A stretch of DNA of 16,167 nt from Oligoflexales bacterium (GTDB lineage Bacteria > Bdellovibrionota_B > Oligoflexia > Oligoflexales > Bog-1112): positions 1-16,167 of the forward strand of contig JBGCDR010000232.1 of NCBI GenBank assembly GCA_045105515.1. Reading direction: 5' to 3'. Numbering within the stretch: position 1 is the stretch's first letter; each line of letters begins with the position of its first letter. A program made the position numbers and the translations under genes. Shown piece after piece: positions 788-16,167 of this stretch. Below the pieces are notes generated by a model. The model did not search any database. It saw nothing but the letters and a program-made list of their open reading frames with translations, and had not been told where the DNA came from.

Positions 788-3700
788 ATGCATATGAGAA
801 AACAAATCACAATGAAATCAACAATCTATAAATGGCTTGTATTTACTGTCTTTTTTGGTAAATGTTTATGCCTACAGGCTGCTGAAGCAGAATTCCATGT
901 TCGATATAAGACTTTCTTGATGTTAGGGTCACCAACAACCGGAAAATCTTCATTGACAAACCTCCTGCTTAATCACTTAAAAGAAGAGCTAGAGGGGAAT
1001 GAAAGCCGGACACTTTTTGCTCCTGCTTATAAATTTGATCGAAGACCTACATCTGAACTATTGGAGAGTTTAGGCGATGGAAAGTTCTTTAGAGTAAGTT
1101 TAGGACAAAGTGAAAAGTACAATCCAATCCTTAGTCTATCAGCAACCCAAACATTTGAGAGTTATGTTTGTCCCGATGCTCAAACTGTCATATTAGACAC
1201 TCCGGGGTCATCGTTGGCTAATGCATCGAAATTTATAGATAAATTCATTAATTCTATGAACAGTCTTGATACAAGCCTTAATATTAGATTGGCTCAAGGA
1301 ATTTTATTTTTCTCCCTGAGTATAGCGGATATTAATGCGATCGCAGCAAATAATCCCGAGGCACTATCAGCTAAATTTAATGAGCAAAAAAATGCTCTTG
1401 CCCAAGTTCTTAGGCGCTTACCAGATCATGTCAAAAGTCGGTTTTCAATTATCCTTTGCCCAGAATATAACAGCTCTTCTCAAAACGCTCTTACGGAGAT
1501 GCAAGAGGCTATCTCTGGTATGAGCCCACTGCGAAGGATTGTCGGAAACTTTATTGGTGAGCATTTGGGGCTTCGTATCTTGGCTTCACAAGTTTTTGCC
1601 TTGGACTTGGGGGATGCTTGGGAAGCTAAGCGGAACTCAGACGAAAGTGCACAAAACCATTTGAACAATAAGATTTTGACGGACTTAATGACATCACTTA
1701 GCTGCGATAGTAATGAAACTGTTGCATGGAATTTGGATCAGCAGGATGGAGGATTACAAGAACAAACATCAAACCAAAACCCGTTGCTCCGTCCCTGGGA
1801 GCAAGCATTGGGGTCGATACGGACCTTTCTCTCTGAATCACGAAATTTAGCCGACAGTAGATATACTTCTGAGATTAATGTGCTGGGAGATTTATCTGAA
1901 AAATTCAGTGACAAAAAACACCTGACATCACAAGGTTTAAATAGATTTAGTGCTTATTATAATGAAGCTTCGACCAGCCTCAGTGATGCAAGACAAGTTT
2001 TACTTGAGGTCCGGCGGCATCAGGTAGAGGTACGAAAGCTTGATATGGATGACCTCAATAAAGAGATAAGAAAAATCAAGATTGCTTACCCAGATGAGTT
2101 TAATTTTAGTAGATATACCCCTGAGTATTTCACCTTTGGGCTAAGTTCAGATAGGAAATTTATCGTTAAAAGAGCTAATAACAACGACGGCAAGTTTCCA
2201 ATAATTGAAAGTGATTCCGTACCCATTCCCCAAATCAAACACGAACTATTGGACAGTCAAAACTTACCTTCACTTTTTATGACTGAATTTTCTTACCAGG
2301 ACTATCCGGCTCTCACATTAGAGCTAGATCATGGCGGCAGTCCTCAGAATGTTAATAACTTAGTCAATATGTTTGCTGCAGAGGCCCTTCCCTTTCATCA
2401 ACGTGGTCGATTAACGTCAATTTTTAATCGGGGTAAAGAAATTCCGGTAAATATTTTGTCTGAAAAGCTAGTTGACGATGACAGTATAGAAATCAACATC
2501 CCGATTATGAACCAGGACTATAGGCAAGCAAAATTACAAGCACTCTCACAGTGCGCCAATCATCTATCAGATTGTAAGGAAATAGTCGGAACTTGCCGAG
2601 AAAATCTGAGCTGTTTGAGCCAGATTCTGCAGAGCTTGAGTGCGGGAACCAACAGGTGTATAAACCACTATCCAGGCAGAAGAAATGATAAAGAGACTTG
2701 CCATAGGCTAGATTATATTTCAAGGCACCACAAAGCACCCCTTACTCCTCAAAATGAATTCCAAATCGTAGAGAAATATACAAGCACTTTTCAAAGTGCA
2801 TCGCGGTCATTTTCCCAAACCCAACGAAGTTATGACAGTGAAATTAATACTTTTCCTGATTTTCCAGATGCTGAGTTGCTAGAAGGTGATAGTGAAGTCA
2901 AAGACTTGAAATCTTTACTCGGCGAAAATCAGATTAGTATTCTTAATGGACTCAAATATGCCTTTGAAAAAGGTGAAATTGTTTCCTATGAGCATGATGG
3001 AACGCTTCGCTACATCAGCAAAAATCCAGGACTATTGCGTGATGTTTATAATCTTACGATGATACCTAGGTATCTCCTCCCTCATTCCAATATGGCAAAA
3101 GTAAAAAAGTATCTTGATGGTGGTGATGATGAGCACCTTGATGCTACTTTCAGCCTTAAAGATGCCCGTGATGATCTCAAAAATCGCGTTAATGCGAACA
3201 AAAATCTTAATATTTTATTGTTTGGGCCTAAGGGTTCTGGAAAATCTACTTTAACCAATGTATTAAATCACTATGCATCAACCATCGATATAAACCGAAA
3301 AAATAAGGCATTAGGGCATAGGGAATTGCATTCAGGACCAGAAGATAACATTGGTTATCTATGGAATGAGGATGGAGCAATTGAGAAGACTTGGGTGGAT
3401 TTTTATTATCAGCAGGGTATACGCCCTGGAATTTTGCGATCTGTGATCCCAAATAGTAAGCCAGAAAATAGCCTAAATGAATTTAATCCCTATGATTTAG
3501 ATGAAGAAGAGGAAGATGGTAAAGTTCCTACTTACCAGGTAAATGGTTTCAAATATGATATAGATGAATACGATGACTTTATGGGAACAGCCCCACAAGG
3601 TAATATTATTGATAGCTTTTCAAGCCAGATGCCCTACATAGTTCCAGAGTATCGACTCAATATTCTTGATAGCTCTGGCCTTCTTCATAAGTCCAAGATA

Positions 3701-16167: not shown

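Follow-up and report, generated by a model that had tools for sequence, protein, structure and literature searches.

A predicted polymorphic toxin locus accompanied by genes for a GTPase and a putative pseudo-GTPase in an Oligoflexales bacterium

To our knowledge, toxins of the FHA-like type are thought to need a TpsB pore, and the bacterial GTPases we know of are almost always cytoplasmic. For toxins exported by Sec and the type II secretion system (T2SS), Table 1 in the survey of Zhang et al. 2012 (PMC3482391) names no characteristic neighbours and lists no FilH repeats, which it ties to the type V secretion system (T5SS) with CdiB; the portions of that survey on GTPases, and the corresponding ones of PMC3417536, mention GIMAP domains only in endosymbiont effectors (Amoebophilus). 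Here we describe a locus of three genes, A, B and C, in a 16,167-nt stretch of DNA from an Oligoflexales bacterium. This stretch, which we call the window, is the entire contig C232 (JBGCDR010000232.1) of genome G000 (6.29 Mb, 461 contigs, 38% GC). The locus is conserved and is apparently an undescribed variant of polymorphic toxin systems, in which a predicted toxin gene stands beside genes for a GTPase and a predicted pseudo-GTPase. A literature search, most of it outside subscription journals, found no description of a GTPase-associated toxin locus.

The original prediction, made from the window alone, had called three large co-oriented open reading frames (ORFs) with gaps of 27 and 59 nt, and these coordinates were confirmed, with all three genes on the + strand. 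The product of gene A (788-5464, 1558 aa) starts with a predicted signal peptide and has two P-loop GTPase domains, between which lies a helical/beta linker; its C-terminal portion is variable and here bears a ricin-type lectin. Gene B (5492-7255, 587 aa) encodes a predicted signal peptide and a predicted GTPase-fold protein that lacks the Walker A motif. Gene C (7315->16167), with its 3' end open, contributes a predicted signal peptide and the first 2951 aa of a protein with a beta-rich stalk; the remainder lies on contig C94 (L001).

The last 141 nt of the window (16027..16167, +) overlap the start of C94 exactly and in frame, and this overlap is common to C232 and C94 only. A second sequence joins at 16137 in all three public runs examined, which come from one study that is possibly the source; this would account for the end of the contig there. 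On C94 the reading frame of gene C runs for 1619 aa, making about 4,523 aa in total, and adds more stalk, a Gly/Ala-rich hydrophobic helical pre-toxin region, a HINT domain and a 139-aa terminal tip. This HINT domain has the first Cys and the terminal His-Asn-Cys (C...HNC) and scores 19.5 bits for PT-HINT, under the Pfam cut-off; PT-HINT is over the cut-off in two relatives, on contig C421 of the same genome (32.2 bits) and in the toxin of genome G014, from another genus of the same family (75.9 bits). A 134-aa gene begins 7 nt downstream of gene C, followed by an integrase-like ORF. Homologues of the 134-aa gene occur in 8 of 72,556 plasmid records, and of the two inspected, one immediately follows a 'polymorphic toxin type 10' protein gene in Leptospira and the other the gene of a DUF637 haemagglutinin in Arsenophonus; the C94 tip matches the C-termini of the Leptospira and Arsenophonus proteins (pairwise E 3e-8 and 2e-6). 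The tip had no match in Pfam, NCBIfam, PHROG, PDB or plasmid tblastn at the limits used. Weaker matches to it lie in ORFs of 152-161 aa at L083 (G014:C3 47336-47557) and L084 (G005:C37 260-481), with E of 3e-4 and 7e-4; these short ORFs are possibly orphan toxin cassettes.

Homologous stalks bear unrelated tips: Tox-HNH-EHHH with Imm50 in G014, a tip with Imm42 in G007 (a genome of the same genus as G014), and a tip with a DUF7674 gene on C421, and the three tips compared had no match among one another. The family thus combines a conserved N-terminal/stalk region with interchangeable C-terminal toxin domains, an autoprocessing domain (HINT) before the tip, and an immunity gene directly downstream (the 134-aa gene on C94, Imm50 in G014, Imm42 in G007). 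The HINT domain, the toxin tip and the downstream immunity gene argue that gene C encodes a polymorphic toxin and not a plain adhesin, and from this anatomy and homology we consider that assignment very probable. The window alone had suggested a giant filament: its large beta-rich stalk stands, but the HINT-processed toxin and its immunity gene, which cannot be seen in the window, were missed. They came to light when the downstream sequence was retrieved, as had been proposed, and C94 proved to hold the toxin tip and the immunity gene and no TpsB. The locus also looks like the contact-dependent effector system that was envisaged.

Within the stalk, beta-type alternation exceeds that of shuffled sequences in 7 of 8 segments (z 2.0-7.6), and the beta-rich region is interrupted by a helical insert (aa ~690-890; 9382..9984, +; alpha-periodicity z 3.7, beta z -1.6). 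Further along is an internal tandem duplication with a period of ~910-920 aa (12097..16164, +; aa 1595-2030 versus 2503-2950, 32% identical), the second copy of which runs on into C94. Gene C gave no FHA-repeat or two-partner secretion (TPS) match in Pfam or NCBIfam, no PF05860 match by direct hmmscan and no PDB sequence match, and the NPxG motif is absent anywhere in it. Population variation in public contigs is concentrated in gene C (single-nucleotide polymorphism bubbles, window 8300-16140), with a second allele at 15903-16032 at a depth of 22 of 61.

As the original prediction had stated for the cluster, no TpsB lies beside the toxin on C232/C94, and none lies in the G014 locus; an adjacent TpsB/CdiB gene and a TPS domain, the two marks of two-partner systems, are thus both lacking here. 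Secretins are present in 3/3 genomes, and a T2SS-like operon, its gene identities read by eye, lies on contig C36. The operon (G000:C36 40232-57745) includes a tandem pair of secretin genes, seen also in G007 and G014, together with two GspC-like genes. From sequence, the likely route of the gene C product is Sec and type II secretion, not a TpsB pore. The locus could instead encode an ordinary contact-dependent inhibition (CDI) or two-partner toxin, its TpsB encoded elsewhere or missing from the assembly and its GTPase genes chance neighbours. Genomes that are 91-94% complete, the existence of Omp85-type genes in them, and ShlB and TPS searches that had no positive control would all allow this. 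We nevertheless regard it as very improbable: gene C has neither NPxG nor a TPS match, the two POTRA_2 matches inspected were read by eye as BamA- and TamA-like, and the adjacency of the genes recurs at 20-35% protein identity in two genera.

Within the source genome itself, contig C173 carries a second A-B-C copy in the same order, with gaps of 35 and 24 nt. This copy (L002 6607-16690) is decaying: an in-frame stop divides its gene A, and its gene C breaks off at a repeat element. Contig C421 (L003) is probably the rest of the C173 toxin, with PT-HINT, the different tip and the DUF7674 gene; about 200 aa are unaccounted for, and the tip lies in another frame than the HINT-bearing ORF. In G014, one strand carries in turn the genes for a GTPase of 393 aa, a B protein of 680 aa, a second GTPase of 395 aa and a toxin of 1956 aa that bears PT-HINT and Tox-HNH-EHHH, and then Imm50; this continuous locus holds no TpsB. 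In G007, the order toxin-Imm42-B runs across contigs joined by 55-nt overlaps, and on three further contigs B has one or two GTPase genes behind it. The linkage therefore extends across genera at 20-35% protein identity.

We assessed how widespread the three families are with profiles run on 131 genomes, the phylum and class set of the source genome (its order holds 95 of them). The gene B profile matched 3/131 genomes and the GTPase profile the same 3/131, and the stalk profile matched 4/131, those three and G009. The stalk copy of G009 (L081, G009:C26 53-5270) is split and truncated, and would be a remnant or else a toxin that stands alone. None of the B, GTPase and stalk profiles matched G001 (94% complete), which belongs to the same genus as the source genome. 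Single-sequence queries performed less well: B as a query missed G007 and G014 (1/61 genomes), and A missed G007 (0/5), all of which the profiles found, and other negatives may therefore be under-sensitive. The families of A, B and C are thus neighbours elsewhere, as had been supposed, at the C173, G014 and G007 loci; their order is kept on C173, while the arrangement varies in G014 and G007. On these gene neighbourhoods, gene B and the GTPases probably work together.

Gene A has the features expected of a double GTPase. The stretch from G1 (GSPTTGKS, aa 47) to G3 (DTPG, aa 137) of its domain 1 lies at 926..1207 (+) and is kept in P0005 and in the C173 paralogue; domain 2 (aa ~802-1132; 3191..4183, +) carries GPKGSGKST (aa 813), DSSG (aa 961) and ITHASD, and is common to the stand-alone GTPases of G007 and G014. 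The protein gives weak MMR_HSR1 matches, and its Atlas features resemble MMR_HSR1/AIG1/septin clusters, with scores of up to 0.88 that are a lead only. The model of aa 31-1144 is poor (mean predicted local distance difference test score (pLDDT) 40.9, predicted template-modelling score (pTM) 0.33), and only domain 2 is usable. For this low-confidence domain 2 model, 50/50 VIA rows are GTPase-domain chains (best Z 14.3, root-mean-square deviation 3.6 Å, 174 aligned), with dynamin-like and GIMAP/septin clade members in mid-list. Domain 2 thereby shows a predicted G-domain fold together with the TRAFAC G1 and G3 motifs; in domain 1 the motifs are present. Across the family, 11 of 12 G domains keep an intact G1 motif, GxxxxGK[S/T]. 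Arg replaces the P-loop Lys in the second of two tandem GTPases at L034 (G007:C138 1350-2540), which may be an intermediate step toward another pseudo-GTPase. The G4 motif [N/T]KxD appears as ITHASD in gene A domain 2 and as TKSAD/TKASD in three G007 copies, and is unrecognisable in domain 1. The tandem GTPase that had been read from the window is therefore borne out in its two P-loop domains, but a third predicted GTPase-fold protein, that of gene B, had escaped notice.

The C-terminal part of gene A is less constant. A ricin-type beta-trefoil lectin-like domain (PF14200; 5072..5368, +) scores 27.7 bits when the last 358 aa are scanned alone, against a cut-off of 25.6, and 23.2 bits on the whole protein. 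In P0005, the one full-length gene A homologue (54% identity), identity runs at 35-67% and drops to 24-31% after aa 1300, and no ricin match was found. The C173 paralogue lacks the lectin-bearing region, and some of the G007 GTPases carry a coiled coil and a different end domain, that of C138 being a bare G domain. These comparisons indicate that the lectin is a variable appendage: the lectin tip of the original prediction is present in gene A, but it is accessory, and most homologues do without it.

Gene A is also where an adhesion and membrane-remodelling apparatus would have to reside, in which a dynamin-like, lectin-tipped double GTPase would act on target membranes and the filament would be mainly an adhesin. 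Helical segments separate the two G domains (alpha-periodicity z 2.1 and 3.4, in a linker modelled at pLDDT below 50), a layout reminiscent of DynA; LeoA (Z 10.4) and mitofusin (Z 10.8) are among the fold matches, and G007 GTPases have coiled coils. Against these points, the GTPases of G014 and of G007 C138 consist of the G domain alone (~395 aa) and lack both stalk and lectin, EF-Tu-, Rag- and G-alpha-type chains stand far higher in the match list than dynamins, and at the end of the filament come HINT and a toxin tip, with an immunity gene after them. We judge such an apparatus improbable, and the membrane remodelling that had been proposed for the GTPase found no direct support, as no dynamin-type stalk was confirmed in the gene A model (mean pLDDT 40.9). 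These GTPases may also resemble IFI44, a point on which the literature search did not bear.

Gene B belongs to a small family: its profile, run against 1.84 billion representatives, retrieved only 8 proteins, none annotated, and gene B has no Pfam, NCBIfam or PHROG family and no usable Atlas match. Its AlphaFold2 (AF2) model, from 9 sequences, has a pTM of 0.71 and a mean pLDDT of 60.5. We found that the top 50 VIA rows for this model are all GTPase-fold chains (Z 7.2-9.0, aa ~67-508); one extra entry near the top is a pre-40S chain, presumably the pseudo-GTPase Tsr1. Foldseek returned nothing at E <= 0.001 (best E 0.056), its weak rows being mostly G-alpha and GIMAP chains, and GIMAP4, GIMAP7 and Toc33 are among the fold matches of gene A domain 2 and gene B. 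The uniform GTPase fold list, taken with the gene neighbourhood, favours a G-domain fold. No GxxxxGK is found in any of the 8 aligned gene B sequences that cover the region, so that Walker A is absent, and at the P-loop site the first strand passes straight into the first helix. Gene B is thus predicted from its model to be a GTPase-fold protein without a P-loop, that is, a pseudo-GTPase. Pattern scans with the gene B alignment returned only 20-40-aa matches (2/113 genome_contigs stretches and 1/222 metagenome_contigs), which we took as chance. The supposed tail anchor of gene B, a Gly/Phe-rich hydrophobic stretch after a basic patch (aa 563-581; 7178..7234, +), did not hold up: its mean hydropathy of 1.43 is marginal, and it is not conserved, being internal in P0002 and P0003 and missing from the C173, G007 and G014 members.

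The best explanation of the locus, which we put forward tentatively and at slightly less than an even chance, is that A and B form an exported GTPase/pseudo-GTPase complex dedicated to the display or tip delivery of C, a TpsB-less Sec/T2SS toxin. Signal peptides would take A, B and C across the inner membrane. The G domains that look active would then pair with the P-loop-less G domain of gene B, as the fold and the invariant adjacency suggest; GTPases of the septin/GIMAP/Toc type pair through their G domains. The variable C-terminal domain of gene A, here the ricin-type lectin, would set the surface that is bound. Finally, HINT would free the toxin tip, which would act inside a rival bacterium, and the downstream gene would protect the producer. 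Release by HINT and protection by an immunity protein are the established logic of polymorphic toxins, and the pairing of tip and immunity gene here is by homology. The periplasm and the outside of the cell are without GTP. Together with the intact P-loops, this suggests that the GTPases work where cytoplasm is met, at or inside the target. A bolder and doubtful extension is a new trafficking mode, in which an exported GTPase/pseudo-GTPase hetero-oligomer would replace TpsB, and GTP of the target cell would dock, or drive the entry of, the HINT-released FHA-like toxin. Under that extension, and held with the same reserve, swappable tips would sit both on the GTPase, for target binding, and on the filament, as the toxin.

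Several observations weigh against a dedicated complex of this kind. G009 carries a homologue of the stalk, and neither a GTPase nor a B gene lies near it or elsewhere in that genome. In G007, B-GTPase pairs on C91 and C12 have no downstream toxin, and on C145 and C156 the toxin begins without a GTPase gene immediately before it; these toxin-less pairs and GTPase-less starts indicate that B and the GTPase are coupled more tightly to each other than to the toxin. The full module is found in two genera only, and since G007 and G014 belong to one genus, it amounts to about two independent observations. The fold match of gene B is middling (best Z 9.0, where unrelated models typically reach 7-8), and profile comparison of the gene B alignment with the GTPase alignment found nothing. 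Export is a further point. Each of genes A, B and C begins with a hydrophobic N-terminus, and the Sec-like signal peptides that had been claimed are visible by eye. A crude signal rule passed 15/20 family members, against 1027/2500 genome ORFs of >=300 aa, but failed genes A (the weakest, hydropathy 1.81) and B, so that the export of these proteins is inferred only. Lastly, ShlB had no match over the cut-off in 5/5 incomplete genomes, but no control genome passed either, and the TPS domain was found in none of 3/3 genomes, but the controls were silent too.

The tighter coupling of B to the GTPase bears on the main alternative explanation, which we hold to be unlikely, though it deserves to be taken seriously: the GTPase/pseudo-GTPase pair would be a separate secreted effector for a eukaryotic host or prey, sharing a conflict island with an ordinary Sec/T2SS polymorphic toxin. 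B is directly followed by a GTPase in 4/4 G007/G014 places that show the next gene, whereas the toxin varies in position or is absent. The Atlas resemblance of gene A to MMR_HSR1/AIG1/septin clusters and the GIMAP4, GIMAP7 and Toc33 fold matches point the same way, as do an IS-rich genome and the label, plant metagenome, of the runs containing it (one study, possibly the source). Effectors of this type in endosymbionts are covered in portions of PMC3482391 and PMC3417536. On the other side, every genome with the GTPase/B pair also has the stalk family, adjacent in at least one locus per genome, the G014 set is one tight co-oriented block, and the tips and immunity genes are of interbacterial types.

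The DNA around the locus is marked by mobile elements. Contig ends of G000 are mostly repeated elements, and the genome is rich in insertion sequences (IS). Upstream of the cluster, the window begins with the end of a repeated IS-like element (1..250). These 250 nt match the start of C167 at 99.6% identity, and 141 nt overlap with C262; integrase/transposase-like ORFs are present on C167 and C262 alike. Related IS-like sequence lies on both flanks of the locus, at window 1-250 and at L001 5765-6374 (C262/C167 matches, 96-100%), and the whole locus could therefore have moved as a composite element. GC content at third codon positions (GC3) of genes A, B and C falls at the 43rd-64th percentile of the genome, which gives no hint that they were acquired recently from elsewhere. 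Scans for promoters and terminators gave results close to those of shuffled sequence, with no terminator between genes A, B and C, and DNA repeats in the window are unremarkable. In two public runs, 1108-8347 is a single unbroken assembly piece, and the public runs containing this genome are labelled plant metagenome (one study, possibly the source of the assembly).

Other toxin-like loci were seen in the same genome. G000:C130 2207-7513 and C52 227-5353 each encode a PT-HINT protein of 1.7 kaa with a signal peptide. The N-termini of the two are almost the same but their tips differ, and behind each gene come a small gene and a primase-like one; from this arrangement they look like a second, mobile polymorphic toxin family. 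PT-HINT has 10 matches in G000, including C350 15116-17856, C152 1551-2783, C169 6456-6956, C442 26155-28144 and C452 3684-5814. One of these five proteins lies in a conjugative-element-like region, and two lie beside small proteins, ricin-like by eye, next to prophage genes. Upstream of the second A-B-C cluster, L002 (G000:C173) 370-3645 encodes a secreted-looking C2-domain protein, and also a lipoprotein-like glycoside hydrolase with Gly/Ser/Thr repeats (the hydrolase read by eye).

Signal-peptide GTPases, a pseudo-GTPase and a TpsB-less toxin in one locus would represent either accessory machinery of a new kind that serves toxin delivery, or exported GTPase effectors of a new class, the pseudo-GTPase being from a family without annotation, in a lineage that has received little study and is probably predatory or host-associated. 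In its compact G014 form (two GTPases of ~395 aa, B, the 1956-aa toxin and Imm50) the system is directly testable.

Among the systems with which the locus can be compared, bacterial dynamin-like pairs such as DynA and LeoABC likewise combine two GTPase domains, either within a single protein or encoded by adjacent genes; they are cytoplasmic or membrane proteins with long stalks, whereas here we find signal peptides, bare G domains in relatives and a predicted pseudo-GTPase partner. CdiBAI and other two-partner systems share with gene C the giant beta-rich stalk with a helical insert, the pre-toxin helical region and the terminal toxin-immunity pair, and the tip and immunity gene are homologous to the Arsenophonus DUF637 cassette; unlike those systems, this one has no TPS domain, no FHA match in Pfam and no adjacent or detectable TpsB/CdiB. 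The Amoebophilus GIMAP/AIG1 effectors, in the portions of the literature that treat them, are similar in placing bacterial GTPase domains on exported proteins in a context of conflict, but there the domains belong to multi-domain host effectors, and here they are encoded separately, next to a partner that lacks the P-loop and a toxin of interbacterial type. The T2SS/Sec polymorphic toxins, as set out in the relevant portions of PMC3482391, have the same signal peptide, filamentous centre, HINT, variable toxin and adjacent immunity gene, and the Tox-EHHH/Imm50 pair of G014 appears in a table there; the difference from that class, within the same portions, is that here a conserved GTPase/pseudo-GTPase block accompanies an FHA-like stalk. 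Judged by its predicted anatomy, the system lacks the marks of two-partner secretion, carries those of polymorphic toxins and is one that works like CDI and polymorphic toxins.

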